DNA from: an uncultured Bacteroidales bacterium
GTDB taxonomy: Bacteria; Bacteroidota; Bacteroidia; Bacteroidales; Paludibacteraceae
Reading direction: 5' to 3'
NCBI GenBank assembly: GCA_946617165.1
Contig: CAMOJP010000001.1
Span: 2,004 to 66,003, forward strand
Length of the DNA stretch: 64,000 bases
Shown: positions 8,026-51,161 of the stretch, piece after piece
Position numbering within the stretch: the stretch's first letter is position 1
Layout: each line of letters starts with the position of its first letter
Notes under the pieces: model-generated
What the model was told of the DNA's origin: nothing
The model's input: only the letters and a program-made list of their open reading frames with translations
The model's database searches: none
Position numbers and translations under genes: made by a program

Positions 8026-8069
8026 TCATCTCTCGGTCATCTCTCGGTCATCGGTCGGTCATCTCTCGG
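8026..8069. repeat. Tandem repeat, 4 x 11 bp (TCATCTCTCGG)
   Basis: Units at 8026, 8037, 8048 (variant TCATCGGTCGG) and 8059. The array ends 8 nt from the tamB stop codon. Confidence 0.9.
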
Positions 8070-8077
8070 TGGTGTTT

Positions 8078-11000
8078 TTACTTATTATTCTTTTTCCAGT
8101 TGAAGTCATGTTTGAAGACGAAGCCGATTCCTTCAATCATAGTAGCCTGCCGGAGCGAGTACTTATCTACGGTGTGCGTGTATCCCTTGAGTCGTACTTT
8201 ACCGTTCGGAGTAAGCAGGTACTCTACGTCCAAGTCCCCAAAGAAGGGTTGGTTGGATATATCGTTATATCGATAGCCGAAGTTACCGTTGATGATGAGT
8301 TGGTCCACGGGTTGCAGTTGGAAAACGGCTTCATACTCCTGTGAGGAAGTAGCGCCTTCCCCGTCGGAGCGCACGTTGAAACCGAGTGTAAAGACATTAG
8401 TAATTTTCGAGAGCCAGTTATTTATCTGTCCGGTGATGGTGGAAGAGAGCAGCGAATAGGTATTAGCGGTAGCCTGTGAGGACTGCGCCATGTATTCGGG
8501 CGTAAAGAAGCGTCCGAAGACGAGCAGATAGACGACTTGTCTCATCATCATCTCGTCGGTATTGATTACCGAGCGAATCTGGTTAGCGATGACTTCGTCG
8601 GATTTGGGGAGACTGAGGTCAAATCGTATTATAGGGTCGTTAAGCGGTCCTTCCACATGGACGATGGTAGTGACCGGAATAGAGGTTCTTCCTGAGATGA
8701 GGTTTTGGGTCTCCGTACCGAAGAGGTCTTTGAGCGAAGCGACCACGGTGTATTGTGCAGCGACATTGAGGACCGGTTGTTCCGGGTTCCCGTTCCAAAT
8801 AATCTGTGATCCTTCAGCGATAGTAAATTCGCGGTGGATGAGGTTAGCGACTGTGAGGTCCATTTTTCCTCCGTTGAGGGTATAGGTACCGACGAGTTTG
8901 TAGCTGTCATTGGCATCGTCCATGGAGAATTTGATAGATCCGTCTCCACGCGCCTGGATCATATCTCCCGTAGCTTCGTTGATAACGAGTTGGAAGAGCG
9001 TTTGCGGATCGACATCCACTCCAAGCGCCAGTCTGAAGCGAGAAGGAGTATCATTGACGACAGCCTGTTTGCGTCGTGGTATAACGCGTTTATTGGCAGT
9101 AGGAGTCTGTTGTGTATTCGTTTGCTGCCGGTTGACGAAAGTGATGAACTCATTATCGGCAGCGGAGGAAGCTCCATCGACGGATATACGGAAAGAGGAT
9201 TTCCCGACGGCTTTTGCGTCAGCAGTGAACCTGAGGTCATACTCCGGTCCTTCCAAGAAGAAGTCCCCGTCAGCGTACACATGTCCTCCCATAAACTGTC
9301 CCGCCTTAGCCGGCACATCAAAAGCAAGGGTATGCCTGCAGTGCCCGGCAAGGTCAAGGCTGAAATTACGGAAGTATTCATCGTGTGATATAACTCCGTT
9401 AAAGTAGAGCGGATTGCCTTCATCGTCAGTGAGCGTTATATCAGGGAAGATGATGGAAGTAGAGTCCATAAAGACGGAGTCTGTGAAGTGATACGTACAA
9501 CCGTTATACGGTACGGTGAGCTGTGCGTTGTGCGCGAGGACAGCGATGATAACCCACACTTTCTTTCCCTCTCCGGAGACGGTGACACGTCCTGAAGCCG
9601 TACCGTCGATATTCTCCAAGAAGGGGTCTGTCCAGTGGTTGATAAACCCGAGCGGAATAGAGTCCGGGAATATATCAATAAGGAATCGTCCTTTGGTAGG
9701 TTCGGCGAGTCCGTCCACATGCGCCACTCTATGGAGCCCTTTGTCCACGTTACCGTCAATAAGGATAGAGTTTGTCTTGTGGTCGAGTTCCACCTTAGCG
9801 ACGGCATCTCCGATATGTGCTCCGCACATGACAGCGGAGTCGAGTCGTACTTCGGCTTCAAAGACAGGCGTAGAGAAGATCCCGAATATATTCGCCCATC
9901 CAGTAAGGTCTCCGGAGACAGTAAAGGCTTTCTCAACGAGGACAAACGGCATGAGCAGTCCCAAATCGATATGCGCGAGTTGGATATGTATTGAGTCCTC
10001 CAATCGCGGTGAAGCGACTCCGTCCGCCAGTATATTCTGCGCATGTCCGTATACACGGAAGTGCTGCACGGCAAGCGAAGTGTCCGCCACGCAATAGGTG
10101 AGTCGCGAGTCGTCGATATGATAGACGGAGTCACCGAGTTGCACGACAGAGGGCAATAGATGACTCTCGATAAGCGGCAGTCCTGCATAGTGCGTAAAGT
10201 GGGTAATGATATCAATGGAGCCATTGCTTATATTCGGTGGCATAGCAGCCAGAGACGCATTGAGTTCGAGCGTGTCAGCCGCAGCTTGTGCATTGATATC
10301 GAAGAAGGTACTGTCCATCTCCATGGAGAAGAGGAGTTTGAGGAAGTTGTTATTATTACGCGATGCGAGCGCCACATTATTCATTTCGGCATTGCCTACC
10401 AGCAGTCCGGGCACGCGTGCTTCCAAGTTCCATATCCGGTTCGGTTCGTCAATAATACCCTCAAAAGTAGGATTGTCGGTGAGCATGAACGGCAGTTCGA
10501 GCATCGCCTGCAACAACTCCAAGTCATGTGCACTTACATTGAATGTAACGGTGTTATCAGACGGCGAGGAGACAATAGTGCTGTAGGTATCAGAAGCGAA
10601 AGCGGACGGCAGATGCTGCGCGATAAGTTTCGCCACCGACGTAGGGAGGGTAGTATAAGCAAAATCGCCATCGGCATCGGCGTTGAGGTAATCAGAGCGC
10701 AGTCTCAATGTCTGATGGTTATTGGCATAGCGTGATTTGAGTTCAAAAGACTCCATACGTACCGTATCACCGGCGATACAGAGTTGTACGCCGTTAAGGA
10801 GTGCGGAGAAGGTAGCATGGTCTATATCATGCCCGTAGTAATGTAACGCCGCCGTTCCTGACAGGTCGAAGTCGGGATAGCGTGTAACCAATTGCAGGTT
10901 CTCGGGATGGAACTCCAACAGGACGACATCGGCATCCACCCTTTTATCGTTCTCTCTGAGGTCCGCCTTTCCGTTGATAGAGAGTTTGATATTGGGGTCA

Positions 11001-21053: not shown

Positions 21054-21056
21054 AGT

Positions 21057-21178
21057 TGCTAGTTATTAGTTAGATATTTGTTAGTTATTTGTTAGTTATT
21101 TGTTAGTTATTTGTTAGTTATTTGTTAGTTATTTGTTAGTTATTAGTTAGATATTTGTTAGTTATTAGTTAGTTATTA
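21057..21178. repeat. Tandem repeat, 6 x 11 bp (GTTAGTTATTT, 21080-21145) flanked by 29-bp direct repeats
   Basis: Units start at 21080, 21091, 21102, 21113, 21124 and 21135. AGTTATTAGTTAGATATTTGTTAGTTATT occurs at 21061-21089 and 21138-21166. Confidence 0.9.
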
Positions 21179-21187: not shown

Positions 21188-22141
21188 TTACCTGATTGTC
21201 ATGGCCTTCAGCAATTTGTTTTGTCGCTTCAAATCATGCAAAATCTCATTCAAAATACCATTGATGAAGATATAACTCTTGTCACCGGAGTAGTCTTTCG
21301 CCAACTCAATATACTCATTGAGACTCACTTCGAGTGCTATCTCCGGAAAATACATAATTTCCGTCAAAGCCGTTTGCAAAATGACAACATCCATAAAAGC
21401 AAGTCGGTCCGCCGTCCAGTTCTTCAAATGACCATGTATCAACTCCTGACACTCTTCGCGATGCTCAATAGAACGCGAAAGCAAATCCTGCGCAAACTGC
21501 AGTTCGTCCTCATGATCAAACATCTGCAGCAATTCCTGGTCTGCTCCGTTCTCTTCGCGGAAGCGTTTGACAGTTTTCACCACAAAACTGAGCACATAAT
21601 CCAAGTCTGTAATCCAGTTCTGCTCGTCCAGGGCAATTTCCAACTCTTCCAATCCGGCAATCAACTCGGCATTGTCAGGAAGCAGTTCTGTAAATATCTT
21701 ACGCCAAACCATCTTATCGTCCTCATAAGAGCACTCGTCGGCTTTCATATAATCCTGATAGAAAGGCATCTCCACAAGCTGGTTATAGACCGCTGAGACA
21801 GCGGATTGTCCCGCCTCCCAAGAAAGGTGCTGTTCATCAATATAGTGTCTGAGCATCCGATTATCGAACAGTTGTTTAGCGAAGCGGTTATCCGCAAAAC
21901 GCCGATTAGGAGTAAAGTTCTTATGTGTGAATCTCGCACGCTGAGCCATTTCTGTTATTTGATCCTGTGCGTAGGTCGTCAATTCGTTTACAAAATCAAG
22001 GAGCCCCATATACAAACTATATGTATCCGCAAAGCCTCGCAGCAGTTCTTTACGGGCAGTAGATGGTGTTTTATCCCCACACTGATAATAGGCAAATAGC
22101 GTCTGAATCGTACGCGTTCTAACTAAACTTCTCGTTATCAT
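21188..22141 (-). CDS. nusB: Transcription antitermination factor NusB (long Bacteroidota form)
   Basis: C-terminal NusB fold motifs (ALTEI.YF.EI....LNEYIELAK.Y...KS..FINGILN). Confidence 0.85.
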   Translation of the reverse strand: MITRSLVRTRTIQTLFAYYQCGDKTPSTARKELLRGFADTYSLYMGLLDFVNELTTYAQDQITEMAQRARFTHKNFTPNRRFADNRFAKQLFDNRMLRHYIDEQHLSWEAGQSAVSAVYNQLVEMPFYQDYMKADECSYEDDKMVWRKIFTELLPDNAELIAGLEELEIALDEQNWITDLDYVLSFVVKTVKRFREENGADQELLQMFDHEDELQFAQDLLSRSIEHREECQELIHGHLKNWTADRLAFMDVVILQTALTEIMYFPEIALEVSLNEYIELAKDYSGDKSYIFINGILNEILHDLKRQNKLLKAMTIR

Positions 22142-22168
22142 TCGTAGTATTTTTTATTAAAAAGCGCG

Positions 22169-22200
22169 CAAAATTACTTTTTTTTTTTGATATATACAAA
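22169..22200 (-). promoter_or_regulatory. nusB promoter (-33 TTTG / -7 TAATTTTG, 20-nt spacer)
   Basis: Minus strand reads TTTGTATATATCAAAAAAAAAAAGTAATTTTG. Its -33 region overlaps that of the divergent promoter. Confidence 0.55.
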
Positions 22201-22216
22201 AAAAGTAGTACTTTTG
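22186..22216 (+). promoter_or_regulatory. Promoter of DUF3276-like gene (-33 TTTG / -7 TACTTTTG, 19-nt spacer)
   Basis: TTTGATATATACAAAAAAAGTAGTACTTTTG, 33 nt upstream of ATG 22249. Confidence 0.55.
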
Positions 22217-22248
22217 TGCCGATTTTTGTAACAAAAAACGTAATTATT

Positions 22249-22641
22249 ATGCAAGAGAGAAGATTTGAAGACCGCAAGGAGCCTGAAATTGTATACTCCC
22301 ACTCGGTCAAAGCAGGGAAGCGTATCTATTACTTAGACGTAAAGAAAGCGCGCAACGAAGATTTATATCTGTGTATCACAGAGAGTAAGCGGAAAGCGGG
22401 AGGAGAAGACGAAGCGCCGCAATTTGAGAAGCATAAAGTTTTCCTTTACAAAGAGGATTTCGCTCATTTCATGGAAGGTCTGCAAGATGTCATCGGTTAC
22501 ATCAAAGGCCAGGTTGGTAATATTGAGGAACGCGTTCCATATCAGCCTGAGCAAGCAGAAGAGGAAACTGCAGAAGTAGAAAAAGAAGCGGAAGAGGAGA
22601 AGCCACGCAGAGGTTTATTCCGTCGCTTTACAAAAGGTTAA
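22249..22641 (+). CDS. DUF3276 (PUR-alpha-like nucleic-acid-binding) protein
   Basis: The pattern SHSVKAGKRIYYLDVKKARNEDLYLCITESKR matches the DUF3276 family. Start moved downstream of the -7 box. Confidence 0.72.
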   Translation: MQERRFEDRKEPEIVYSHSVKAGKRIYYLDVKKARNEDLYLCITESKRKAGGEDEAPQFEKHKVFLYKEDFAHFMEGLQDVIGYIKGQVGNIEERVPYQPEQAEEETAEVEKEAEEEKPRRGLFRRFTKG

Positions 22642-23848
22642 TCGAATCAACGATACAGTCAGCGATGTCTTCCTTCGATTGAAGGGGGACATCTTTTTTT
22701 GTGCCGTTATTAAAGAACAGAGTCACTTTATTTGTATTACAGCCGAAACCGGCTCCTTGGTCCTGCAGAGAGTTGAGAACAATCATGTCCAGTTGTTTGC
22801 TTTCCATCTTATGCAGAGCGTGCGATTGTTCATTGCAAGTCTCTAAGGCAAAGCCGATTAGTTTTTGTCCAGTACGTTTCGTTTTGCCTAATGTCGCTGC
22901 AATGTCCGTTGTTGTTTTGAGCGCCAGAGTCATCTGTGTTTGACCGGGTTGTTTTTTTATTTTCTCTTGCGCTGTTTCGGTTGGTGCAAAATCAGCCACG
23001 GCGGCACAGAGAATAGCGATATCAGCATGTTCAAACTGTTCGAGGGTCTGTTCTGCCATCTGCGCAGCAGAAGTAACCGGAATGATATCCAGTTGTTCTT
23101 TGCAGCCGTAGAACAGCGGCACGGACGGTAGTGCGGAGACGGGACCTGCAATGAGCGTGATGTTCGCCCCGCGTCTCCAGCAACTCAATGCCAAGGCGTT
23201 ACCTTGTTTGCCTGTAGAGTGATTTGAGAGATAGCGGACGGGGTCTATTGCTTCCTGTGTAGGACCGGAAGTGATGAGTACATTTTTGTTCTCCAAGTCC
23301 TTATTGGTCAGCGCATAGCGTATAGATTCCGCCAAGACATTCACCTCCTGCATTCGTCCTTTTCCTGTTGTTCCGCAAGCCAATTCACCTGCCACACAAT
23401 CAAGCATCGTAACATTGGTTTGTCCAGACAACTTTCTCATTGCTTCCTGCGTTGCAGGATTGAGATACATTTTATCGTTCATTGCCGGTGCAATAACGAC
23501 GGGTTTACACATAGCGCAGAACGTTGTAGTGAGGGCATCATCAGCGATGCCATGCGCCATTTTACCTATCAGGTCAGCCGTAGCCGGAGCGACAATCATG
23601 ACATCCGCCCAGTCGGGCAAGGAGATATGTTCCGTAGAATGTTCGTTGATTGCGGCAAACACATCTGAATAGACTTTATTACCACTGAGAGTCTGCAAGG
23701 TAAGTTCAGTGACGAACTCCAAGGCGTTCTTGGTGGTCGTCACTTTCACTTCAGCCCCCTCTTTACGCAGGATACGTATCAGTTCGGGTATTTTATAAGC
23801 CGCTATACCGCCGCTTATGCCTACTACTATGTGTTTGCCTTTCAGCAT
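22628..23848 (-). CDS. coaBC: Bifunctional phosphopantothenoylcysteine decarboxylase / phosphopantothenate-cysteine ligase
   Basis: Flavoprotein N-domain (GISGGIAAYK, PAMN) and DFP C-domain (ITSGPT.E.IDPVR.LSN.S.GK). Confidence 0.9.
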   Translation of the reverse strand: MLKGKHIVVGISGGIAAYKIPELIRILRKEGAEVKVTTTKNALEFVTELTLQTLSGNKVYSDVFAAINEHSTEHISLPDWADVMIVAPATADLIGKMAHGIADDALTTTFCAMCKPVVIAPAMNDKMYLNPATQEAMRKLSGQTNVTMLDCVAGELACGTTGKGRMQEVNVLAESIRYALTNKDLENKNVLITSGPTQEAIDPVRYLSNHSTGKQGNALALSCWRRGANITLIAGPVSALPSVPLFYGCKEQLDIIPVTSAAQMAEQTLEQFEHADIAILCAAVADFAPTETAQEKIKKQPGQTQMTLALKTTTDIAATLGKTKRTGQKLIGFALETCNEQSHALHKMESKQLDMIVLNSLQDQGAGFGCNTNKVTLFFNNGTKKDVPLQSKEDIADCIVDSINLL

Positions 23849-23849
23849 T

Positions 23850-24182
23850 TTACTTCAACTGGTCGTCCTTTGAACCGACATTGAATACCAATTGGTCGTC
23901 AATGAGTTCCTGGGTAGCGATCAGTGTAGGTTTAGGCATCACCTCGTAACTGCGAGAGATTTCTATTTGTTCGCGGTTCTCGAAAGTGTCATCGAGAGCT
24001 TCCTGCGGCATAGCGAAATCCTGCAGTTTAGTGTCGAGTTCTTTCTTCAAGGAGCTTGCAATCTGGTTGGAACGTTTTCCGAGGATTGCGACAGTTTCAT
24101 ACACATTACCGACTTTCTCCGTCAATTGGTTCAAGTCACGTGTAATGGTTGTTTTAGGAGCTTTAGTTTGTTTATAGTTCAT
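23850..24182 (-). CDS. rpoZ: DNA-directed RNA polymerase subunit omega
   Basis: 110 aa with N.YE.V.I..KR..QI in the N-terminal third. Its position between bamD and coaBC matches other Bacteroidota. Confidence 0.65.
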   Translation of the reverse strand: MNYKQTKAPKTTITRDLNQLTEKVGNVYETVAILGKRSNQIASSLKKELDTKLQDFAMPQEALDDTFENREQIEISRSYEVMPKPTLIATQELIDDQLVFNVGSKDDQLK

Positions 24183-24197
24183 TGTTGTACAATTAAT

Positions 24198-25007
24198 TTA
24201 TTCTTGTTTTAGTATTTTCTCAATTTCCTTATTCATTTTATCCGCCTGCGCTCGATGTTTTGATTCGGGATACTCAGTAAGGAAGCTATAGTACTCGTCT
24301 TGTGTATCGCGTGCCCGTTCCATTTTCTTTTCCTCGAATGAGTTAACCATCTGTTGGTATTTAGCGCTGAGTACGAGCCAGTTCAGTTCTTCCTGGTGGC
24401 TGTTACTTGGATAATCGCGCAGAGCATTTTTTGCAACGATCTCACAGCTCTCGTAGTTATTGCCGAGATAAGTACCCAAGTTGTAGTATAGTTTAGCGTT
24501 CAAGTACTCTTTGTATGCGAGTTTATCGTACATCTCACTCATTTCCTGATAGGCCTGTTCAGAATAGGGGCTGTTAGGATAGAGTTCGACGAAGGATGTA
24601 TATGCAGCGATAGCCTGTCTGGTTATATCCTGGTCCAAGCGTGCATCGGGCGAGTCCAAGTAATAGCAATGTCCTACCTGAAAACGCGCCTCTGTAATAT
24701 ACTTTCCTTTAGGATAATTGCGTATATATGCAGCATAGTAATCCGCCGCTTCGGTGTAGGCTTTACGTCCGAGGTGTGTGCGTGCCAAATAGCAGAGCAC
24801 ATCCTCGCTCCGTTCAGTTCCTTTGTAGTATGATGCTACATCTTCAAAAAGAGCCTGTGCTTTGACATACTCTTGTGCATTAAAGTAAGCCAAGGCTTTC
24901 TGGAACTTATAATCGGGGTCTTTGGATTTGAGCACTTGCTGGTACTCCCCGCATCCGGCAAGGAGTACCAACAGCACGCCTAATATTATCTGTTTATCAA
25001 ATTTCAA
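24198..25007 (-). CDS. bamD: Outer membrane protein assembly factor BamD (TPR lipoprotein)
   Basis: Lipobox LLAGC and TPR-like repeats rich in Y/A/K/E. Confidence 0.8.
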   Translation of the reverse strand: MKFDKQIILGVLLVLLAGCGEYQQVLKSKDPDYKFQKALAYFNAQEYVKAQALFEDVASYYKGTERSEDVLCYLARTHLGRKAYTEAADYYAAYIRNYPKGKYITEARFQVGHCYYLDSPDARLDQDITRQAIAAYTSFVELYPNSPYSEQAYQEMSEMYDKLAYKEYLNAKLYYNLGTYLGNNYESCEIVAKNALRDYPSNSHQEELNWLVLSAKYQQMVNSFEEKKMERARDTQDEYYSFLTEYPESKHRAQADKMNKEIEKILKQE

Positions 25008-25014
25008 TTTTCAG

Positions 25015-26037
25015 TTATTCATTGACATCCTCCAACCATCGTGAAGAGACGACGATACGTGTACCGTCTCCTTCCGCCAAGATAAGGTGGCAGGAAGCAT
25101 CTTCCGTTTTTTCTATCATCTCGAGAGCAGCCTCTTCTCCCAGAACCATACAAGCAGTAGCCAAGGCGTCAGCGCGGATACCTGATTCAGCGATAACGGT
25201 AGCGCTGAGCAGGTTATGGTTGACGGGGTATCCTGTACGGGGGTCAACAGTATGGCTGCGTCGTTCTCCGCCGTCATCATAGTAGAAGCGTCTGTAGTTA
25301 CCGGACGAAGCGATACACATATCATTCACTTCGATAATTTCTTCCAGTTCCTGTACATCTCCAGTGGGGTCATCAATCGGTTTAGTAATACCGAGGCGCC
25401 ATTTATTTTTCTTTTCGGCATGTCCTTTGCATACTATTTCACCTCCGATATCCACCAAGTAATTTTCGCACCCTTGAGATGCCAAGTAATTAGCAATAAT
25501 ATCGCAGCCGTATCCTTTAGCGATAGCGCTGGCATCCAATTGGATTCTGGTATCCATTTTAGCAATGCGGTGATGCACGGTGTCGAGTTCCACATACTGG
25601 AATCCGACGAACTGCAAGATACTGTCAATCTCTTGCTGAGAGGGAGTGTGTCCTTTCTTTTTAGTACCGAATCCCCACTCATTTACGAGCGGTCCGCATG
25701 TGATGTCAAATGCGCCATGGCTCATTTTGGTGACTTCAACGGCAGTGGTAAACATTTTCTCGAAGAGGGAGTCTGTCTCCACTTCGTCATTGCGGTTAAC
25801 ACGGCTGATGATAGACGCCTTATTGTAGATACTCAAGGAGGAGTCCATCCGTGCCAACTCAGCTTTAATTTCCTTCTCCATATCACGAGTTCCCTCGTAA
25901 CGGATGTTATAGTACGTACCGAACACCAAACCTTCATTCAGATAGTACTGTTTTTTCCGGCACCCAGGCATAAAGATCAGCAGCGCAGCTGCAGCCAGTG
26001 CCATACCTAATGCAATTAGTGTACGTGTTATTTTCAT
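25015..26037 (-). CDS. apbE: FAD:protein FMN transferase (ApbE family)
   Basis: Motifs FDIT.G.LV..WGFG, AIAKGY and SSGNYRRF. Start trimmed to MKITRTLIALG, which removes the overlap with the upstream gene. Confidence 0.85.
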   Translation of the reverse strand: MKITRTLIALGMALAAAALLIFMPGCRKKQYYLNEGLVFGTYYNIRYEGTRDMEKEIKAELARMDSSLSIYNKASIISRVNRNDEVETDSLFEKMFTTAVEVTKMSHGAFDITCGPLVNEWGFGTKKKGHTPSQQEIDSILQFVGFQYVELDTVHHRIAKMDTRIQLDASAIAKGYGCDIIANYLASQGCENYLVDIGGEIVCKGHAEKKNKWRLGITKPIDDPTGDVQELEEIIEVNDMCIASSGNYRRFYYDDGGERRSHTVDPRTGYPVNHNLLSATVIAESGIRADALATACMVLGEEAALEMIEKTEDASCHLILAEGDGTRIVVSSRWLEDVNE

Positions 26038-26083
26038 AAGCTTCAATTTTAGATGGTTATTATTATAAATAAGGTTAACATAT

Positions 26084-26941
26084 TCAGAACCATATTCCCA
26101 GTCCGATGCATCCATTCAGTTTTTGGAGATAGAGTTTATCGTCTCCGGCAGCGTTGATATACACATTTTCCTTATTGATGCCATTAGGATTGAGGCATCC
26201 TTGTGCAAAGAGGTTGAGTGATAGTGCGTCAAACTCCCACTCTTTGTCCAATTTAAGAGACAAGTTGGTTACGGCGAATTTTCCGTTGCCATAGAGGTCA
26301 CTTGCCCATGGGCTTATACCTACCTGTGCTCCGAGCGTGAGTCCCAGATTGTCCCAAGTATAGTTATATCCGAGTTCTATATAAGTACTCCACGCGCGTT
26401 TAGCATTATCATTCTCATCCCAAACGAAGTCGTTACCGGCCACGTTGGTGTACCAATTGATATATGCGTCGACTCCGAAGAAGTGTTCGAAGCTATATCC
26501 TGCCCAGACTTCAGTAGTGGACGTAGTATTCACGTTACCATCCTCATCGAACAGGTCTTTGTCTCGCTGCCATGAGAGGAAATTGGAGCCGTCGCAGTAG
26601 TAGTAATGGTTCACACCCACACTTGCTCCGAAGAAGGAATAATTGAGCATGACATCCACTTCGGGCATAAACATGGTATAGCCGACGCCTTCTCCATTAT
26701 CTTTTTTGAATTTCCAGTCTGATGCGCCAAGGTTCGCCCATACTCCGACACGTAGTGAGGTTTTATCTCCGTCGTACCCAATTTCGAGGTCGGGTTGGAA
26801 CGACAAACCGCCGTTATACTGTCCACGCCAGAGGTAAGCACTTACGATTTCAGCACCGGCGTCATAGGCAAATTCCACATCGGCTTTAGCCAAGGTAGCA
26901 CACCCAACGAGCAGCAGAGCTGCCAACAACATCTTTTTCAT
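26084..26941 (-). CDS. Outer-membrane beta-barrel, TorF/Gcw_chp-like putative porin
   Basis: Signal peptide, the motif SAYLWRGQ..GG.SFQP, alternating aromatic beta-strand pattern, and a terminal GLGIWF. Confidence 0.55.
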   Translation of the reverse strand: MKKMLLAALLLVGCATLAKADVEFAYDAGAEIVSAYLWRGQYNGGLSFQPDLEIGYDGDKTSLRVGVWANLGASDWKFKKDNGEGVGYTMFMPEVDVMLNYSFFGASVGVNHYYYCDGSNFLSWQRDKDLFDEDGNVNTTSTTEVWAGYSFEHFFGVDAYINWYTNVAGNDFVWDENDNAKRAWSTYIELGYNYTWDNLGLTLGAQVGISPWASDLYGNGKFAVTNLSLKLDKEWEFDALSLNLFAQGCLNPNGINKENVYINAAGDDKLYLQKLNGCIGLGIWF

Positions 26942-26965
26942 ACAGATTTACCAATAAATGTATTA

Positions 26966-27214
26966 TCAAAGTCCGTTTTTAGCTTCCCACGCCATCCGCA
27001 GAGCGACTTCGAGGATACGTGTATCGCCAATGACTACGATACCTCCATCGGGTCCGGGTTCAATGTGATAACCGCTTTCCGGGGCGCCTTCTCCATTAAA
27101 AAATGCTCTAACTTCATCGGCAGCAATTCCCAATTCATTAGCGATTGCTGCCATACTGCCGTGTGGCAGGCTGTCCTTTACGTCACGCAGACGATTAAAT
27201 GTTGTTCTTGTCAT
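26966..27214 (-). CDS. Small (82 aa) putative helix-turn-helix DNA-binding protein
   Basis: An HTH-like segment (GSMAAIANELGIAADEVRAFF) and its own promoter. No family recognised. Confidence 0.45.
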   Translation of the reverse strand: MTRTTFNRLRDVKDSLPHGSMAAIANELGIAADEVRAFFNGEGAPESGYHIEPGPDGGIVVIGDTRILEVALRMAWEAKNGL

Positions 27215-27288
27215 ATCTTATTATAATTTAGTATCGTTTGTTTTGTCGTTTACCACACATTTCACCCCACTCTTTCCCTTTCGGGCGG

Positions 27289-27320
27289 CAAAATTACAAC
27301 ATTTTTTTTGATTATGCAAA
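27289..27320 (-). promoter_or_regulatory. Promoter of the small HTH gene (-33 TTTG / -7 TAATTTTG, 20-nt spacer)
   Basis: Minus strand reads TTTGCATAATCAAAAAAAATGTTGTAATTTTG. Confidence 0.55.
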
Positions 27321-27448
27321 TTTTTCGTCAAAAATCGCCAAATATTTTTCACATTCCTACATTCATTTGTGTGAGCGGGAGAGGAAGTTTTTTTTGCCAA
27401 ACGGAGTCTGCCGCATTTTTGTAGCTCGGTAGGCTCTCGAATCGTTTT

Positions 27449-27558
27449 CGTGTTTTTTTCGTCCTTTTTTCGAGTTTTTTTCGTGTTTTTTTCGAGTTGT
27501 TTTCGTCCTTTTTTCGTCTTTTTTTCGAGTTTTTTTCGTCTTTTTTTCGAGTTTGGCG
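27449..27558. repeat. Tandem repeat, 10 x 11 bp phased T-tract array (CGWSTTTTTTT)
   Basis: CG dinucleotides fall at 27449, 27460, 27471, 27482, 27493, 27504, 27515, 27526, 27537 and 27548, exactly 11 bp apart. Confidence 0.92.
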
Positions 27559-27582
27559 GGAAGGGAAGGGAGAAAGATGCAG

Positions 27583-27674
27583 GGTGAAAGGAATTTACAA
27601 TTTAACAATTAATGAATGTAAGGGGATAGGTGAAAGGGATTTACAATTTAACAATTAATGAATGTAAGGGGATA
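27583..27674. repeat. Tandem repeat, 2 x 46 bp
   Basis: GGTGAAAGGRATTTACAATTTAACAATTAATGAATGTAAGGGGATA at 27583-27628 and 27629-27674, with one mismatch. Confidence 0.92.
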
Positions 27675-27871
27675 GAGCGCAATTTTAATATGCCTTGCAT
27701 TGGTTTGCGCCATATTGTAGTAGTTAATCAAAAAGGGAAAAACAACTGCGCCGCGTAGTGCGGCAATCGGAATAGAGAGGATATGGCCGGAAGGGACAAT
27801 ATTTATTAACCTAAACCACAAACAAAACTCGCGGGATAGCATCCCGGATAACGAATATTAACAGATGCCCG

Positions 27872-28714
27872 CATCCGATGCGGGGAAGAAAAGAAAGAAA
27901 AACAATGCAGGGCTGAATGCCGCACATAGATATGCGGCGCATAAACGCTAACAACGGCGGAATACCGCCGGAAACAGAACAACGAAAAGCGGAAATAGGC
28001 AGGAATATGCCGGAATAGGTAGAAATAGGCAGGAATAGACAGAAATATGCCGGAATAGGCAGAAATAGGCAAACCGGCGGGCAAGGGAACAGACATCCGA
28101 TGTTAGAAAAGAACGCGGGGCTGAATGCCGCACATAGATATGCGGCGCATAAACGCTAACAACGGCGGAATACCGCCGGAAACAGAACAACGAAAAGCGG
28201 AAATAGGCAGGAATATGCCGGAATAGGTAGAAATAGGCAGGAATAGACAGAAATATGCCGGAATAGGCAGAAATAGGCAAACCGGCGGGCAAGGGAACCG
28301 ACATCCGATGTTAGAAGAACACGGGGCTGAAGAGCCGCGAAGCTAACGAAGTAGAAAGTCGAAAGGTGCCTACGGGCACTCCGATAAATGTCGAAAGCAA
28401 AGGTCGCACATCAATGTGCGGCGCATAAACGCTAACAACGGCGGAATACCGCCGGAAACAGAACAACGAAAAGCGGAAACAGGCAGGAATAGGCCGGAAT
28501 AGGCCGGAATAGGCAGAAATAGGCAGAAATAGGCACACCGGCAGGCAAGGGAACCGATATCCGATGTTAGAAAAGAACGCGGGGCAGAAGAGCCGCGAAG
28601 CTAACAAATTCAGAAGTCGAAAGCGATTAGTCGAAAGTCGAAAGGGGCCTACGGACACTACGATAAATGTCAAAAGTCGAAAGGTGCCTACGGGCACTCC
28701 GATAAATGTCAAAA
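27872..28714. repeat. Macro-tandem repeat: four units of 222/208/257/about 155 bp containing 10-bp sub-arrays and GC hairpins
   Basis: CATCCGATG marks the unit boundaries at 27872, 28094, 28302 and 28559. Regions 27910-28107 and 28118-28315 are nearly identical. 8 x 10 bp GRAATAKRYM occurs at 27991-28070 and again in later units. Confidence 0.9.
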
Positions 28715-28754
28715 GGCGAGAGGGCGTTGGAGAGGCGAGAGGGCGTTGGAGAGG
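28715..28754. repeat. Tandem repeat, 2 x 20 bp (GGCGAGAGGGCGTTGGAGAG)
   Basis: Perfect copies at 28715-28734 and 28735-28754. Confidence 0.9.
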
Positions 28755-28803
28755 TAAAAATATAGAATAATTATTCTATCCGGTTCATTTTTATGCTAAA
28801 AAA

Positions 28804-28835
28804 TTTGCATATGTGTAAATTTTGTTGTACCTTTG
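28804..28835 (+). promoter_or_regulatory. Promoter of the VOC / oxoamine synthase / SDR operon (-33 TTTG / -7 TACCTTTG, 20-nt spacer)
   Basis: TTTGCATATGTGTAAATTTTGTTGTACCTTTG. It implies a leader of about 210 nt before ATG 29053. Confidence 0.55.
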
Positions 28836-28863
28836 CACGCCGAAATGTGGAAATTGCAACAAG

Positions 28864-29030
28864 CCAATAAGATAATACAATAACAGGCAAACAAAAGCAA
28901 TACAATAACAGGCAAACAAAAGCAATGCAATAACATGCCAATAAGATAATACAATAACAGGCAAACAAAAGCAACACAATAACAGGCAAACAAAAGCAAT
29001 ACAATAACAAGCTCATAAGATAACAACAAG
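28864..29030. repeat. CA-rich tandem repeats in the leader: 25-bp unit (AACAGGCAAACAAAAGCAAYACAAT) x4 nested in a 74-bp unit x2.2
   Basis: AACAGGC starts at 28882, 28907, 28956 and 28981. CCAATAAGATAAT occurs at 28864 and 28938, with a partial copy at 29012. Confidence 0.88.
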
Positions 29031-29052
29031 CAAATAAAAGTTATACAATATT

Positions 29053-30126
29053 ATGGACAAATTTTTAATATCAGGCATCCAGCAAATAGGCGTAGGAACC
29101 GAGAACTTCCGCAAGTCATGGAATTGGTTCATTGAGATGTTCGGCATAGATGTCAAGATACTGGAAGATGACACGGTAGCGGAGCGTATGCTTCCCTACA
29201 CGGGCGGTGAAGCTCAGAAGCGTCATGCGTGCATAGCGGTGAACCTGCAAGGCGGTGGCGGCTTTGAGATATGGCAATACTCCGAGCGCACTCCCGTTTC
29301 CGCCAAATTCAATCCTGCAGTAGGCGACCTTGGTATATTTGCCGCGAAAGTCAAATGCCGCGATGTAGAAGCCTTCTACAAGAAGATACATCAGAAATGG
29401 ACGGAGTGCAGTCCTATTGCCACGCTGCCGGACGGGACGCCCTGTTTTTATGTCCGTGACCTGTACGGGAACTGTTTTCAGTTAGTGGAAGACAAGCGTG
29501 TTTTCATTAACGAGCACAAGCTAACAGGCGGCATTATCGGTGCCGTAGTGGGTGTAACGGATATGGCGAAATCCATTGCGTTCTACAAAGAGATATTAGG
29601 TTACGACACTGTAGTATATGATGAGACGGGAGTCTTTAGCGACTGGCAGTTGCTTGACTGTCCGAATGCGAAGTGCCGTCGTGTACTGCTTGCGTGTTCC
29701 AAGTCTCGGAAAGGAGCCTTTTCCGAGTTGATGGGAGAGAGCAGGATTGAGTTGGTTCAGGCATTAGAGCGCACTCCCCGTAAGATTTACGAAGGTCGTT
29801 ACTGGGGCGATCCGGGTTTTATACAGATATGCTTTGACGTAAGCGGCATGCGTGAGTTAGGCAAGTTCTGCGCCCAAAAAGGTTACCCATTCACGGTGGA
29901 CAGTTGTCCCGGCGACGAGGTATTCGACATGGGGGAAGCTTCGGGTCACTTTACTTATATAGAGGACCCCGACGGTACGCTTATCGAGTTCGTTGAGACG
30001 CACAAGATTCCGGTAGTGAAGAAGCTGAACTGGTATATAGACATGCGCCAACGTGACCGCGAAAAAGCGTTGCCCAAATTCCTATTCCGCATGATGGGAT
30101 TGGTGAGCCGACAAAAAGCGAAGTAG
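29053..30126 (+). CDS. VOC (glyoxalase/bleomycin-resistance/dioxygenase fold) family protein, two-module
   Basis: 357 aa with two beta-alpha-beta-beta-beta-like modules (IQQIGVGTENF.., IIGAVVGVTDM..) and a DPDGTLIEFVE motif. Confidence 0.65.
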   Translation: MDKFLISGIQQIGVGTENFRKSWNWFIEMFGIDVKILEDDTVAERMLPYTGGEAQKRHACIAVNLQGGGGFEIWQYSERTPVSAKFNPAVGDLGIFAAKVKCRDVEAFYKKIHQKWTECSPIATLPDGTPCFYVRDLYGNCFQLVEDKRVFINEHKLTGGIIGAVVGVTDMAKSIAFYKEILGYDTVVYDETGVFSDWQLLDCPNAKCRRVLLACSKSRKGAFSELMGESRIELVQALERTPRKIYEGRYWGDPGFIQICFDVSGMRELGKFCAQKGYPFTVDSCPGDEVFDMGEASGHFTYIEDPDGTLIEFVETHKIPVVKKLNWYIDMRQRDREKALPKFLFRMMGLVSRQKAK

Positions 30127-30170
30127 CGGAAATCATAAAAGGTAGATATTAACATTTAGATTTATACATT

Positions 30171-31436
30171 ATGCAAGTTGACATTTTTGACAAGATCAGG
30201 AAATCGTCCGGTGGACCTATTGGTCAGTATCGTGATCGTGCGGAAGGTTATTTTACTTTCCCGAAGTTAGAAGGCGAATTAGGTCCTCATATGCGTTTTA
30301 ACGGGCAGGAAGTTCTCACATGGAGTTTGAACAACTATCTCGGTTTGGCCAATCATCCGGAGGTCCGCCGTGTAGATGCTGAGGCAGCTGCCAAATGGGG
30401 CATGGCCTATCCGATGGGCAGCCGTATGATGACAGGTCAGACAGCTCTTCATGAGAAGTTGGAGCAGATGCTCGCCAAGTTTGAGAAGAAAGAGGCCGCA
30501 TTTCTGTTCAACTTCGGTTACCAAGGCATTCTCTCTACGATTGATTCTTTAGTAAGCAGACACGATGTTATTGTATATGATGCAGAGGCTCACGCCTGCC
30601 TGCTTGACGGAATACGTCTGCATATCGGCGACAAATTCAAATTCCGTCACAACGACATTGCGGACTGCGAGAAAGTATTGGCTCGTGCCTGCTCTATAGC
30701 CGATAAGAACGGCGGCGGTGTATTGTTGATTACGGAAGGAGTGTTCGGTATGACCGGTGCGTTAGGTATTCTGGACCAGATTGTAGCCCTCAAGAAGAAA
30801 TATTCGTTCCGCTTCCTGATTGATGATGCTCACGGTTTCGGTGTGATGGGCGAACACGGACGCGGTACGTCGGAGCACTTCGGTGTGATGGACGGTGTGG
30901 ATATTTATATCGGTGCCTATGCCAAGTCCATGGCCACTATCGGCGGCTTCGTTGCGTCAGAGAAAGATATCATCACTTACCTGCGCTATAACATGCGTTC
31001 TCAGATGTACGCCAAAGCGTTGCCTATGCCTATTGTTGAAGGATGTATCAAACGGCTTGAGATTATCGACAGTCCGGAAGGCGACCAGTTGCGTGCTCAT
31101 TTGTGGGAAGTGACGCGCCGCATCCAGAAGGGTTTCCGTGATCTGGGTTACGAAATAGGTCCGGCAGAAGCGTGCGTTACTCCTGTTCACCTCTACTGCG
31201 GCATCAACCAGGCAACGAATATTGCAGTTGACCTGCGCGAGAACTACCATATATTCTGCTCCATTGTCTGCTATCCTGTTATTCCTCCCGGAATGCTTAT
31301 TTTCCGTATTATACCTACTGCAGCTCACTCGTTCGAGGACGTAGACCGCACATTGGCGGCATTCAAGGATATCAAGGAACGCCTTGCTAAGGGAGAATAC
31401 GACAAAGAGATACCTGATATGGCATTAATCAAGTAA
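30171..31436 (+). CDS. PLP-dependent alpha-oxoamine synthase, serine-palmitoyltransferase-like
   Basis: Motifs NNYLGLANHP, DDAHGFGVMG and the PLP-lysine segment GAYAKSMATIGGFVAS. The KS....GGFV pattern resembles SPT rather than KBL or BioF. Confidence 0.85.
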   Translation: MQVDIFDKIRKSSGGPIGQYRDRAEGYFTFPKLEGELGPHMRFNGQEVLTWSLNNYLGLANHPEVRRVDAEAAAKWGMAYPMGSRMMTGQTALHEKLEQMLAKFEKKEAAFLFNFGYQGILSTIDSLVSRHDVIVYDAEAHACLLDGIRLHIGDKFKFRHNDIADCEKVLARACSIADKNGGGVLLITEGVFGMTGALGILDQIVALKKKYSFRFLIDDAHGFGVMGEHGRGTSEHFGVMDGVDIYIGAYAKSMATIGGFVASEKDIITYLRYNMRSQMYAKALPMPIVEGCIKRLEIIDSPEGDQLRAHLWEVTRRIQKGFRDLGYEIGPAEACVTPVHLYCGINQATNIAVDLRENYHIFCSIVCYPVIPPGMLIFRIIPTAAHSFEDVDRTLAAFKDIKERLAKGEYDKEIPDMALIK

Positions 31437-31437
31437 T

Positions 31438-32223
31438 ATGAATACCGTTTGGATAACCGGTGCCTCGAGCGGCATAGGCGAAGCATGTGCTTACCGTTAT
31501 GCGACTCAAGGCGACCAACTCATATTGACGTCATCGTCTCGGGAGCGCCTTGAAGTTGTTGCCGAGCGATGCCGTCAGTACGGTGCAGGCAACGTATATG
31601 TTCTGCCGAGTGACCTAAGCGATTTAGAAGGTGTCGGTCTGCTTGTCCGGCAAGCCTGGGACCGGTTCGGCGGAATTGATATTCTCTTTCTGAATGCGGG
31701 TATCAGCCAACGTACGAACGTTGAAGATACGACGATGGATATGGTTCGTCAGATTATGGAGATTAACTACTTTGCTCCTGTAGCGATTGCCAAAGCCATT
31801 TTGCCGATGATGCTGAGTGCCGGCGGCGGAAATATAGCGGTAACCACCTCGATAGCAGGTAAATTCGGTTTTCCGTTACGTTGTGCATACAGTTCCTCCA
31901 AGCATGCGCTATACGGATTTTTCGAGACCCTTCGTGCGGAATACTACGACAAGTACATCCGCGTTACCATTGTTTGCCCCGGTCGCGTAAGGACCAATAT
32001 CTCTGTCCGGGCGCTTGACAAAGGCGGTCAGCCTCACGGCATCATGGACCCGGGTCAAGATAAAGGCATGCAAGTGGATGTGGCAGCACGTAAGATTGTA
32101 AAAGCTATCCGCAAGGGCAAGCGCGAGATTTATATCGGGCGAGGCGAATTAATAATGGTGGATATCAAGCGTTTCTTCCCCGGTCTATGTGCCTGGCTTG
32201 CTCGCCGCATCAAACCTACCTAA
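31438..32223 (+). CDS. Short-chain dehydrogenase/reductase (SDR)
   Basis: Motifs TGASSGIGEA, NAG and YSSSKHAL (catalytic YxxxK). It starts 1 nt after the upstream stop codon. Confidence 0.85.
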   Translation: MNTVWITGASSGIGEACAYRYATQGDQLILTSSSRERLEVVAERCRQYGAGNVYVLPSDLSDLEGVGLLVRQAWDRFGGIDILFLNAGISQRTNVEDTTMDMVRQIMEINYFAPVAIAKAILPMMLSAGGGNIAVTTSIAGKFGFPLRCAYSSSKHALYGFFETLRAEYYDKYIRVTIVCPGRVRTNISVRALDKGGQPHGIMDPGQDKGMQVDVAARKIVKAIRKGKREIYIGRGELIMVDIKRFFPGLCAWLARRIKPT

Positions 32224-49854: not shown

Positions 49855-50740
49855 AACCTACATATTACTTATACTTATAGGAATAGCCTGCTTCGCGTGC
49901 AAAAAGGAAGAACTACCGCCACCATCAATTATCGTAGAAGGATGGATTGAAGCGGGGAAAGCACCCGTCGTTATGCTACATAAGTCATACGTAGTGGACG
50001 AAGACAGCAAATCACGGGCTTCCTTGCAATCCATTATCGGAGGACAACTCATTACCTTTGGACGCGTTACAATCTTTGACGGGACGGACTCCGTCATCTT
50101 GACCGGCAGATTGGACACTAACTATATGCCGCCGTATATATACTCTACAACAGAATTGGAAGGTGTTGTGGGAAAAACATATACTCTGCACGCTACCTAT
50201 CAGGGATACAACGCAACGGCAAGTACTACCATACCGAATACTGCACGTTTCGACTCCATCAGAGCACAAGAAATTGAACCTGACTTAATGAGACTCACAG
50301 GCTACATAAGCGGCGTGAAGCACGACTCCCGCTATCTGCTTATGGCAAAACTGCTTCATGAACGGCAATACAAACTGTGCCCCCTCGGAGTATTCTCGGG
50401 CGAACAGGCACAAAACGGAAAAATGACTGTGACCATCTACTGCCCCAAGTTCGGCAAATTGGGATTTGATAACAATAATGACAAGAAAGATATTAATACG
50501 AAAATGGCATTCCCTAAATCGGACGAACAAGGATATAGTATCAAAATAGCACAGATAGACCAAACCGCCTACGACTATTGGGACCAATTCGCCGCACAAA
50601 GTCTTACACAGGGCGTCCTCTTTATGACCGTCTATAAGAACTTACCCGGCAACATCAATAACGGATTAGGCATCTGGTACGGCATGGGTAGCAGCGAGTA
50701 CCATCTCCGCCTCACTCAATCCAAAACCTTCATCTTCTAA
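49841..50740 (+). CDS. DUF4249-like lipoprotein
   Basis: Lipobox ACFAC. It overlaps the TBDR by 14 nt. The TBDR + DUF4249 pairing is a recurrent Bacteroidota arrangement. Confidence 0.65.
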   Translation: MANFRTYILLILIGIACFACKKEELPPPSIIVEGWIEAGKAPVVMLHKSYVVDEDSKSRASLQSIIGGQLITFGRVTIFDGTDSVILTGRLDTNYMPPYIYSTTELEGVVGKTYTLHATYQGYNATASTTIPNTARFDSIRAQEIEPDLMRLTGYISGVKHDSRYLLMAKLLHERQYKLCPLGVFSGEQAQNGKMTVTIYCPKFGKLGFDNNNDKKDINTKMAFPKSDEQGYSIKIAQIDQTAYDYWDQFAAQSLTQGVLFMTVYKNLPGNINNGLGIWYGMGSSEYHLRLTQSKTFIF

Positions 50741-50905
50741 TTCATCTTCTCCCCAAAAAACACCATCCTCTAATTCATCTTCTCCCCAAAAACCTCCATC
50801 CTCTAATTCATCTTCTCCCCCAAAAACACCATCCTCTAATTCATCTTCTCCCCCAAAAACACCATCCTCTAATTCATCTTCTCCCCAAAAAACACCATCC
50901 TCTAA
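50741..50905. repeat. Tandem repeat, 5 x 33 bp (TTCATCTTCTCCCCAAAAAACACCATCCTCTAA)
   Basis: Copies start at 50741, 50774, 50807, 50840 and 50873. The array begins immediately after the DUF4249-like stop codon. Confidence 0.92.
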
Positions 50906-50940
50906 TTACCCCATTCGCCTCCACTTCCCCTCCCGTTGGC

Positions 50941-51006
50941 AATGTATGCTCAATGTATGCTCAATGTATGCTGAATGTATGCTCAATGTATGCTCAATGT
51001 ATGCAC
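50941..51006. repeat. Tandem repeat, 6 x 11 bp (AATGTATGCTC)
   Basis: Units start at 50941, 50952, 50963, 50974, 50985 and 50996. Confidence 0.92.
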
Positions 51007-51085
51007 AGCGGGACCATGTCCCGACTTAACCATGATTATCAACCAATTACATCGCCTCCGACTCTCAACTATACAACTGCTTTCG

Positions 51086-51149: not shown

Positions 51150-51161
51150 CTTTCGACTAAG

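Follow-up and report, generated by a model that had tools for sequence, protein, structure and literature searches.

We analysed a 64,000-nucleotide window of DNA (contig CAMOJP010000001.1), a chromosomal segment from an uncultured rumen Bacteroidales, in which a gene-free tract at positions 27321-28803 separates the divergent promoters of a gene for an 82-amino-acid (aa) protein and of an operon headed by a VOC/glyoxalase-family gene. The tract consists almost wholly of nested repeats, as an earlier reading made from the sequence alone had proposed and as our analysis confirmed. From sequence comparisons we consider it probable that the tract is a single copy, enlarged by internal duplication, of a non-coding modular repeat that is confined to this lineage and runs head-body-tail; the repeat would be selfish or neutral DNA, shaped further by slippage. 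The modules recur in the same order at a second locus, upstream of the dxs gene, and the tract is therefore a copy of a dispersed modular repeat. L-numbers below denote related loci or contigs, drawn from a genome collection and from metagenome assemblies, that were compared with the window. The nearest genomes in the species-level collection are metagenome-assembled genomes (MAGs) from ruminant gut labelled Paludibacteraceae or Bacteroidales, with which the VOC protein of the window shares at most 87% identity.

Repeat architecture of the tract

Analysis with Tandem Repeats Finder (TRF) and a repeat-family search revealed tandem structure nested at six scales. The modules are as follows (coordinates are those of the window).

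27418-27572, plus strand: HEAD, comprising the left flank GTAGCTCGGTAGGCTCTCGAATCG, an 11-bp phased T-tract array TCGWSTTTTTT (~10 units, 27437-27557) and the purine run GGCGGGAAGGGAAGGGAG
27573-27898, plus strand: segment exclusive to the window copy (326 bp), with a 46-bp x 2 duplication, three further GC hairpins and a probable degenerate body
27899-28106, plus strand: BODY unit 1, comprising hairpin GCCGCA-N8-TGCGGC; GCATAAACGCTAACAA; hairpin CGGCGG-AATA-CCGCCG; GAAACAGAACAACGAAAAGC; eight 10-bp units GRAATAKRYM; and CGGCGGGCAAGGGAAC-GACATCCGATG
28107-28314, plus strand: BODY unit 2, 98% identical to unit 1
28315-28399, plus strand: TAIL copy 1, comprising AAGAACACGGGGCTGAAGAGCCGCGAAGCTAACGAAGTAGA and then one hairpin element (28350-28397), (AGTCRAA)n-GGTGCCTACGGGCACTCCGATAAAT-GTCGAAAG
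28400-28567, plus strand: BODY unit 3, diverged (67% identity without gaps), in which the first hairpin is the variant CGCACAT-CA-ATGTGCG and the 10-bp array has 5-6 units
28568-28715, plus strand: TAIL copy 2, with the same leader as tail copy 1, an (AAGTCGA)x4 run and hairpin elements at 28629-28676 and 28668-28715
28714-28776, plus strand: 19-bp x 2 duplication (28714-28754; 2.2 copies by TRF) and the right repeat end GAGGTAAAAATATAGAATAATTAT
28858-29023, plus strand: A/C-rich array with 25- and 74-nt periods (TRF, 25 nt x 5.5), in the ~210-nt 5' untranslated region (UTR) of the VOC gene and outside the modular repeat

Almost all that the sequence-only reading had described was recovered at its positions or a few bases away, and the comparison refines it in several places. 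The 46-bp pair given there as 27583-27674 was recovered by both searches (27583-27675, 97-98% identity), and the near-identity noted between 27910-28107 and 28118-28315 is that of the two 208-bp body units 1 and 2. Hairpin insertions of 35-39 nt in the later units were likewise found, as the three hairpin elements of the tail copies listed above; TRF reports tail copy 2 as 39 nt x 2.4 and 7 nt x 4.4. The array described as ten copies of CGWSTTTTTTT at 27449-27558 is real (TRF, 11 bp x 10.0 at 27445-27554, 80% matches), but the strict consensus holds in only six of its ten units. The delimiter CATCCGATG, thought to bound four long units, indeed lies at 27872, 28094 and 28302, and the fourth occurrence, near 28558, reads TATCCGATG; these delimiters bound only three intervals. 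An array of eight 10-bp units had been ascribed to every long unit and is present in two, the third having 5-6. Of the two hairpins said to stand in each unit, CGGCGG-AATA-CCGCCG does occur three times, while GCCGCA-N8-TGCGGC occurs twice, unit 3 carrying the variant. A duplication placed at 28715-28754 was also verified, although its unit measures 19 rather than 20 bp. Two features had gone unnoticed in that reading: the A/C-rich array at 28858-29023, which begins shortly beyond the range it gave, and a second repeat tract at 50731-51150 with inverted hairpin elements. The 28-nt core of the hairpin element occurs five times in the window against 0.00 occurrences expected from shuffled sequences. 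Finally, the stretch at ~27740-27880 aligns weakly to the body units and ends in the delimiter at 27872; it is probably a degenerate, older body unit.

A second copy of the repeat upstream of dxs

Nine loci came up when metagenomes were scanned with the hairpin core. In one of these, L088, the dxs promoter is preceded by the terminal part of a long unit and by two hairpin elements. On a longer contig with the same Dxs, L093, the gap is complete from a minus-strand GFO_IDH_MocA gene to dxs, and over 921 bp (9080-10000) its modules stand in the same order and orientation as in the window:

L093 gap, start: left flank ..GTTAGCCTCTCGAATCG; about nine TCGWSTTTTTT units; CGAGTTTAGCGGGAAAGGA; hairpin GCCGCA-N8-TGCGGC; GCATAGACGCTAACAA
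L093 gap, middle: hairpin CGGCGG-AATA-CCGCCG; GAAACAGACAACGAAAAGC; 10-bp array of ~29 units; CGGCGGGCAGGGAAACCGACATCCGATG
L093 gap, end: AGAAAAGAACGCGGGACTGAAGAGCCGCAAAGCTAACGAAGTAGA; two hairpin elements; GAGGTAAAATACAGAATATTTAT

The two heads (L093 9161-9302 and window 27418-27570) are 82% identical. Body and tail occupy L093 9318-9886, to which the body segments of the window are 90-94% identical: body unit 1 matches L093 9318-9760, and window 28123-28245 matches L093 9318-9439 at 94% identity. Tail copy 1 of the window is 91% identical to L088 26-168. Head and body are adjacent in L093, the 27573-27898 segment of the window being absent there, and the 10-bp array has ~29 units at the dxs locus versus 8, 8 and 6 in the window. 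The window copy is the larger of the two: it has three bodies and two tails, each tail standing behind a body, together with its own 326-bp segment. The composite measures 0.75-1.4 kb. Homology between the loci ends ~98 and 76 bp from the left promoters and 27-48 nt ahead of the -33 box of the right promoters; in the window this right-hand end falls at ~28776, as judged by eye from an alignment of window 28700-28800 with L093 9860-9960. The dxs-locus sequence is 100% identical across three assemblies (L088, L093 and L094). Because L093 spans the whole gap between unique genes, the dxs-locus copy is no chimera.

This second copy bears directly on one alternative, namely that random intergenic DNA was tandemly duplicated in place and that nothing about the tract is mobile. 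Six-scale nesting and the whole-unit indels between alleles described below are what such local slippage would produce, and this clade does make unrelated short arrays in many of its intergenic regions. However, head, body and tail recur in order at the dxs locus, and the hairpin element, with an identical core, recurs at about 11 sites, coding sequences included. The presence of the same sequence at unlinked loci contradicts local slippage as the sole explanation, and we consider that explanation very unlikely.

Several observations nevertheless weigh against our interpretation of the tract as one copy of a dispersed selfish or neutral repeat. The full head-body-tail repeat was found at two loci only, and a single ectopic duplication would give two copies as well. 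The dxs contigs are 100% identical in three assemblies while the alleles of the VOC locus differ by 1.6%, and the two loci may lie in different genomes. The dxs contigs and the window were recovered from the same two data sets, and neither has close relatives; their tetranucleotide correlation (r 0.81-0.83) does not discriminate, since sister species give 0.83-0.87. Both copies also have the same polarity, with the head toward a minus-strand gene and the tail upstream of the -33 box of a plus-strand gene, and both downstream units appear to concern lipid or isoprenoid synthesis, which would allow a co-opted regulatory role. No terminal inverted repeats were found in the composite by the repeat search (its ends at 27418 and ~28776 are not complementary), and inspection of the composite ends in the window and in L093 revealed no clear target-site duplication. 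We noticed no transposase and no RAYT gene in the inventory of open reading frames (ORFs) of the 64-kb window, which is only partly annotated. Copy numbers within the near-identical units may moreover have been mis-assembled.

Alleles and unit-number variation

The sheep-rumen contig L001 is identical to the window over 8.2 kb. A second allele of the VOC locus was found twice, in L086/L102 and, from another sample of the same sheep study, in L101; it is 98.4% identical to the window over 8.9 kb. In L086 and L101 the array of body unit 3 is one 10-mer shorter, there are 4.2 hairpin units versus 2.4 in the window, the 19-mer is single rather than double, and the 25-nt array of the UTR has one unit fewer (4.5 vs 5.5). 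The unique flanks, the promoter and the remainder of the UTR are identical between the alleles (for the promoter, in L101). Four arrays thus vary by whole units, which is the behaviour of variable-number tandem repeats, and the suggestion that the tract is a slippage hotspot, one of three readings among which the earlier reader had found the sequence alone unable to choose, was borne out to this extent. At window position 28829 (alignment column 547) L086 reads TCCCTTTG in the -7 box of the VOC promoter in place of TACCTTTG, which L101, with the same tract allele, retains; the difference must come from strain variation or from an error in sequencing.

Several of the contigs break exactly at the repeats. 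L002 ends at 27432, L086 and L101 start inside a body unit, L104 starts in the UTR array, L087 starts at window position 51024, and L088 and L094 start inside the 10-bp array. Body units of 208 bp with 98% identity probably exceed the k-mers of short-read assemblers, and given these breaks the number of 208-bp units is to be read as a minimum. One might go further and suppose that metagenome mis-assembly created or inflated the repeats, in view of the contigs from several assemblies that start or end exactly at repeats and of the difficulty, as we infer it, of reliably counting such units from short reads. The same architecture was, however, obtained in independent assemblies from different samples (window and L001; L086 and L101; and, for the dxs form, L088, L093 and L094), and both the window and L093 have unique flanks on both sides. 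We regard an origin of the tract as an assembly artefact as improbable in the extreme.

Absence from sister species

Among 80 related loci, the gene for the 82-aa protein lies beside the VOC gene only in L003-L006, the four closest species, where the gaps measure 581, 4610, 3487 and 3490 bp. The gap of L003 is empty, and those of L004 and L006 hold unrelated genes (a lipoprotein and an ADH-ALDH fusion, or ALDH, nitroreductase and CysK). When the tract was compared by BLASTN with all of these related loci, matches were confined to the two promoter regions; that of the 82-aa gene is kept in the sister species L003, L005 and L006. The dxs relatives L095 and L096, which belong to other species, have no such repeat upstream of dxs. 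Decay of former genes was considered as a source of the tract and rejected, as tblastn searches with the proteins of the sister gaps against the window gave no match in the tract.

These comparisons are important for a further alternative, in which the tract would be a co-opted cis-regulatory or architectural module whose 11-bp T-tracts, as curved DNA, and 10-bp arrays, with their sites along a single face of the helix, recruit a nucleoid-associated or regulatory protein and so set both divergent promoters at the VOC operon and at dxs. Phased A/T-tracts are known to bend DNA and to stimulate promoters, and the 10- and 11-bp periods correspond to one turn of the double helix. The two copies share their polarity and stand at similar distances from the promoters. 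An 18-bp perfect palindrome, ATAGAATAATTATTCTAT, at 28762-28779, lies 24 nt upstream of the VOC -33 TTTG box, where it overlaps the right repeat end, and is identical in L086 and L101; it could be an operator. Against such a module, it is missing from sister species whose operon and promoter are the same, as it is from the dxs relatives; its array units range from 6 to 29 between copies and vary between alleles; and the 326-bp extra segment and triplicated body indicate that spacing is unconstrained. No candidate binding protein is tied to the tract, the family of the 82-aa protein being widespread without it. We therefore consider a regulatory module unlikely.

The formation of tandem arrays is a general habit of this lineage. 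Sister-species gaps bear their own short arrays, unrelated in sequence to those of the window, and their period is again 11 bp. In non-coding DNA of the window, arrays of 11-bp period with unrelated units lie at 8026-8070, 21056-21177, 27445-27554 and 50940-51004, and similar arrays in relatives lie at L097 1356-1398 and 1452-1492, L003 5765-5816, L004 2976-3045, L005 497-553, L006 2701-2756 and L008 7137-7177. The commonest array period is 11 in this and the sister species, and 7 and 14 in more distant relatives. The array at 21056-21177 fills the nusB-yajC spacer up to 3 nt from the yajC start codon. In the sister species the VOC 5'UTR (L003 5930-5996; L004 5968-6005) holds tandem arrays unrelated to that of the window; such arrays have thus arisen there repeatedly. 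Within its 64 kb the window has nine arrays whose unit, of 10 nt or longer, is present in 4 or more copies, and element-bearing contigs show many more. When the window was extended by 12.6 kb by way of its terminal proteins, more 11-bp arrays appeared, but neither the composite nor the hairpin element recurred there. For a rough comparison, the detection methods being different, a survey of satellites in reference genomes found more than 4 such arrays per Mb (its 'rich' class) in 18 of 119 bacterial species (PMC6749651).

The dispersed hairpin element

The hairpin element of the tail is also found apart from the composite. It reads (AGTCRAA)n-GGTGCCTACGGGCACTCCGATAAAT-GTCRAAAG, is ~40 nt long and contains the palindrome GGTGCC-TACG-GGCAC. 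We gathered 21 copies, 12 of them with an identical 36-nt core, from ~11 distinct sites. The copies in the window are exclusively intergenic, being those at 28350-28715 and two inverted ones. Elsewhere, 7 of the ~11 sites lie inside intact ORFs: two each in those of Dxs and of a GT2 glycosyltransferase, and one each in those of a class IV aminotransferase, a THUMP-like methyltransferase and a small membrane protein. The GT2 copies are in two different reading frames, and the membrane-protein copy is at the end of the gene.

51080-51150, minus strand: two hairpin-element copies, at the end of a second repeat tract (50731-51150)
L088 321-2297 (= L093 10001-11977): host ORF of Dxs
L085 1078-2709, L091 2536-3600, L092 1199-2641 and L089 2-364: further host ORFs (GT2, aminotransferase, methyltransferase, membrane protein)

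The second tract lies between plus-strand genes and is itself multi-scale (33 bp x 5.4, 11 bp x 5.9). It is followed by a terminator-like hairpin and a promoter, and the related contig L090 has 8/16-nt, 15-nt and 14-nt arrays at this place.

Four of the six frames of the hairpin element are open, and two sense frames encode the hydrophilic peptides VESRKVPTGTPINVES and SKGAYGHSDKC. All seven sites in coding sequences are in sense orientation, which has a chance of 1 in 128 under equal odds; selection against hydrophobic antisense peptides could account for this bias. An 80-aa query made from the four open-frame peptides gave 8 word-sharing candidates in the protein collection, none of which scored.

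An alignment of the element-bearing Dxs protein to E. coli Dxs (2O1S; E 1.6e-146) covers the full length and places the additional residues at loops. Among 120 homologues of the clade, Dxs length ranges from 610 to 768 aa, and longer proteins tend to have more VES motifs (r 0.85). Four hot spots stand out when the homologues are aligned; they contain heptads (VESRESR, VESGESR, VESGETK) and peptides of the hairpin core, and the shortest homologues lack all of them. Read through its three frames, the 7-nt repeat GTCGARA yields these heptads. The dxs gene of L096 has an identical 47-nt element at two sites, while in that of L095 site 1 is empty and site 4 holds a version without the hairpin core. 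The element is always flanked by GTCRAAAG on both sides, and the empty site of L095 already has GGCGAAAG-like repeats; the flanking sequence could be a duplicated target, a preferred target or a part of the element. A second hairpin family of like build, (AATGATG)n-GAGCGCGRCTRCGTCGCTC-(AATGRTGAAATGATGAAA), is found in frame in dxs (L095/L096 alignment columns 996-1006 and 1542-1557), where it encodes the peptide NDGMSATASLNDGMMK. In the short contigs L084 and L092 the core is identical to the consensus, yet G+C is 0.52 and 0.54 and the tetranucleotide correlation to the window is 0.45 and 0.13, respectively. If these contigs belong to another species, which is uncertain, the element has either crossed species or stays uniform.

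Taken together with the composite, these copies might represent a new family of non-autonomous mobile DNA in rumen Bacteroidales (Paludibacteraceae-like). Its members would be ~40-nt hairpins with UNCG-type loops and expandable 7-nt flanks that insert with a sense bias both between genes and in frame in essential genes, and that join with 10- and 11-bp arrays into kilobase elements between divergent promoters. We put this broader proposal forward tentatively, judging it rather less probable than not.

Gene content and setting of the gap

The distance between the 82-aa gene and the VOC gene is 1838 bp, by far the largest gap in the 64 kb. The genes and promoters at its boundaries are:

26966-27214, minus strand: 82-aa gene, left neighbour of the gap
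27289-27320, minus strand: promoter of the 82-aa gene, of the Bacteroidetes type (-33 TTTG / -7 TAnnTTTG); left boundary, outside the repeat
28804-28835, plus strand: promoter of the VOC / alpha-oxoamine synthase / SDR operon; right boundary, outside the repeat and identical in L101
29053-30126, plus strand: VOC/glyoxalase-family gene, right neighbour of the gap, followed by an alpha-oxoamine synthase-type aminotransferase gene and an SDR gene

Farther to the left of the 82-aa gene are genes for a porin-like protein, ApbE, BamD and RpoZ. The gap is a switch of gene orientation, with minus-strand genes at 805-27214 and plus-strand genes at 29053-58136. The two outward-facing promoters proposed earlier are where they had been placed, and contain the only TAnnTTTG motifs within 27200-29100 (28828 on the plus strand and 27289 on the minus strand); on neither strand does the interior of the tract contain one. 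Its lack of any credible ORF was also upheld: all tract ORFs are of low complexity and at most 133 aa long, and the longest (133 aa, minus strand) had no homologue among 5.8 billion predicted proteins. A search for tRNA and tmRNA genes found none in the tract. There is no CRISPR-like structure, in agreement with the earlier view, since the arrays run head to tail without spacers and the neighbours are BamD, ApbE, a porin-like protein, VOC, aminotransferase and SDR. Terminator-like sites number 6 against 3.2 +/- 1.9 expected, and models of sigma-70 promoters and terminators are uninformative for Bacteroidetes.

The gene order VOC, alpha-oxoamine synthase-type aminotransferase, SDR (window 29053-32223) is retained at ~60 related loci in many Bacteroidales MAGs. 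The aminotransferase has up to 98% identity to its relatives, and its matches to the serine palmitoyltransferase, Kbl and BioF models are all below the cut-off. The operon may belong to a lipid pathway, possibly of the sphingolipid type.

Transcription of the tract into a series of small structured RNAs, or into a single long non-coding RNA, would be compatible with the two stable GC hairpins of each unit, with the better folding of the plus-strand unit relative to shuffles (z -3.3), with the C(UACG)G loop on the plus strand and with the sense orientation of all seven copies in coding sequences. Yet the minus strand folds almost as well (z -2.5), and since both strands fold alike the hairpins are DNA palindromes. 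Only these two palindromes pair, the 10-bp array that makes up most of each unit remaining unpaired. Variant copies break stem pairs through ~4 changes, none compensatory and one giving a wobble pair; across the hairpin elements, variation is too small for a covariation analysis to speak for a conserved structure, and the few stem changes mostly break pairs. Rfam 15 gave no match for 26000-30000 on either strand even at E<=1, the promoter motif is lacking inside the tract, and the tract is not conserved beyond this lineage. The suggestion of a structured RNA array was therefore not supported, and we rate it as highly improbable.

We give least credence of all to a replication origin, or to the iteron array or centromere-like (parS-type) site that had been offered as a further interpretation of the tract. 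The tract is located exactly at the gene-orientation switch and contains an AT-rich repeated array, as such a site might. Nevertheless, there is no DnaA box (allowing <=1 mismatch) in 22079-30896 and no minimum of cumulative GC skew at the tract, and its flanks are chromosomal housekeeping genes, with no rep or par genes among the neighbours. The tract showed no similarity to 72,556 plasmids and no BLASTN match to phages, and scans of viral contigs with the body core and with the hairpin core returned 0 matches. The repeat is, in addition, present at a second locus and absent from sister species.

A link between the tract and the small DNA-binding protein thought to be encoded beside it likewise found no support. 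The family of the 82-aa protein comprises ~196 clusters at 50% identity, and its genes occur whether or not the tract accompanies them. The protein has no Pfam match, and NCBIfam gave only a faint match to the N-terminus of Rex (E 0.054). Its confident AlphaFold2 model (pLDDT 83) has a strand, three helices, two strands and a helix, arranged as in winged-helix proteins, and the top Foldseek matches are mostly winged-helix regulators, none of them significant (all E >=0.48, TM ~0.3). From this topology DNA binding by the protein is plausible.

Comparison with known repeat systems

The closest architecture to that of the tract repeat is BrickBuilt of P. gingivalis, which consists of a leader, a 23-nt minisatellite of 1-22.8 units and a tail, measures 84-991 nt and is present in 19 copies, reportedly always intergenic (Klein et al. 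2015, Mob DNA 6:18; PMC4596501). Compared by description, both are non-coding, modular, strictly host-restricted repeats of Bacteroidales located near promoters, and the tract repeat shows the same order of leader, variable array and tail. They differ in that BrickBuilt has one minisatellite and small inverted-repeat ends, whereas the tract repeat has three arrays (11-bp, 10-bp and 32-39-nt) and no such ends were found; TRF detected no 23-nt period in the tract. Unlike BrickBuilt, the tract repeat was found at only two loci, and one of its modules also occurs in coding sequences. This last property recalls the Rickettsia palindromic elements (RPE), palindromic repeats of ~100-150 bp that lie in frame in functional Rickettsia genes (Ogata et al. 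2000, 2002, summarised in PMC10969869). Like them, the hairpin element occurs both between genes and in frame in intact housekeeping genes, where it adds a conserved peptide, and it is present or absent at dxs sites 1 and 4. However, RPE reside in an obligate intracellular host, whereas the hairpin element is ~40 nt long, has expanding 7-nt GTCRAAA flanks, belongs to a free-living gut anaerobe of another phylum and is probably unrelated in sequence; the likeness is one of behaviour.

BOX elements of Streptococcus pneumoniae and the BIMEs of enterobacteria are 100-300 bp long and present in about a hundred or more copies, and REPs are extragenic and tied to RAYT transposases of IS200/IS605-like type. 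They resemble the tract as hairpin-rich, non-coding mosaics of intergenic modules, one of which varies in number, but at 100-300 bp they fall short of the 0.75-1.4 kb of the composite. Short imperfect palindromes are common to REP/BIME and the tract repeat, with its two body hairpins and that of the tail; REP/BIME are exclusively extragenic, in contrast to the hairpin element with its seven coding-sequence sites. MITEs have terminal inverted repeats, which were not found in the composite; the composite is at 2 loci and its hairpin module at ~11 sites. Transposed non-coding satellites of prokaryotes are reported to be rare, Leptospira interrogans and Methanocella conradii being the examples among 261 species (Subirana and Messeguer 2019, BMC Evol Biol 19:181; PMC6749651). 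Like the tract they consist of non-coding tandem arrays, and the same repeat stands at several places in one genome. The survey treats single arrays, though, and lists no example from Bacteroidales, while the tract is an ordered composite of several arrays.

Proposed origin of the tract

If the tract is a copy of a dispersed modular repeat, as we favour, the composite may have reached one of the two gaps by copy-and-insert or by ectopic recombination, perhaps aided by shared hairpin modules. Its arrays would then have grown and shrunk locally by slipped-strand mispairing, and the body-plus-tail block would have been doubled by unequal recombination, while the degenerate unit at ~27740-27880 suggests a turnover of units. 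The tract would accordingly be selfish or neutral DNA rather than a dedicated RNA gene or protein-binding site. Side effects on its neighbours are possible, through the curvature of the T-tracts upstream of the left promoter and through the 1.4 kb of extra spacing between the divergent promoters.

Implications

What appeared as an odd gene-free tract becomes a defined object, with named modules, two insertion contexts and two alleles. Repeat families like BrickBuilt, BOX and RPE would thus also be found in the abundant uncultured Bacteroidales of the rumen, at unusual density. These elements interrupt short-read assemblies of the lineage and so limit the contiguity of its MAGs, and the arrays could be used as strain markers. 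If the head or the spacing alters the flanking promoters, the tract would show how selfish DNA can remodel the layout of promoters. The in-frame copies are relevant to annotation and to the evolution of proteins, since they and the associated repeats make an essential enzyme, Dxs, differ by up to 158 residues among close relatives. Should the more tentative proposal of a mobile hairpin family be true, it would imply a hairpin- or single-strand-specific mobilising enzyme and, in a free-living gut bacterium, an ongoing repeat-driven change of protein length that has so far been best known from Rickettsia.

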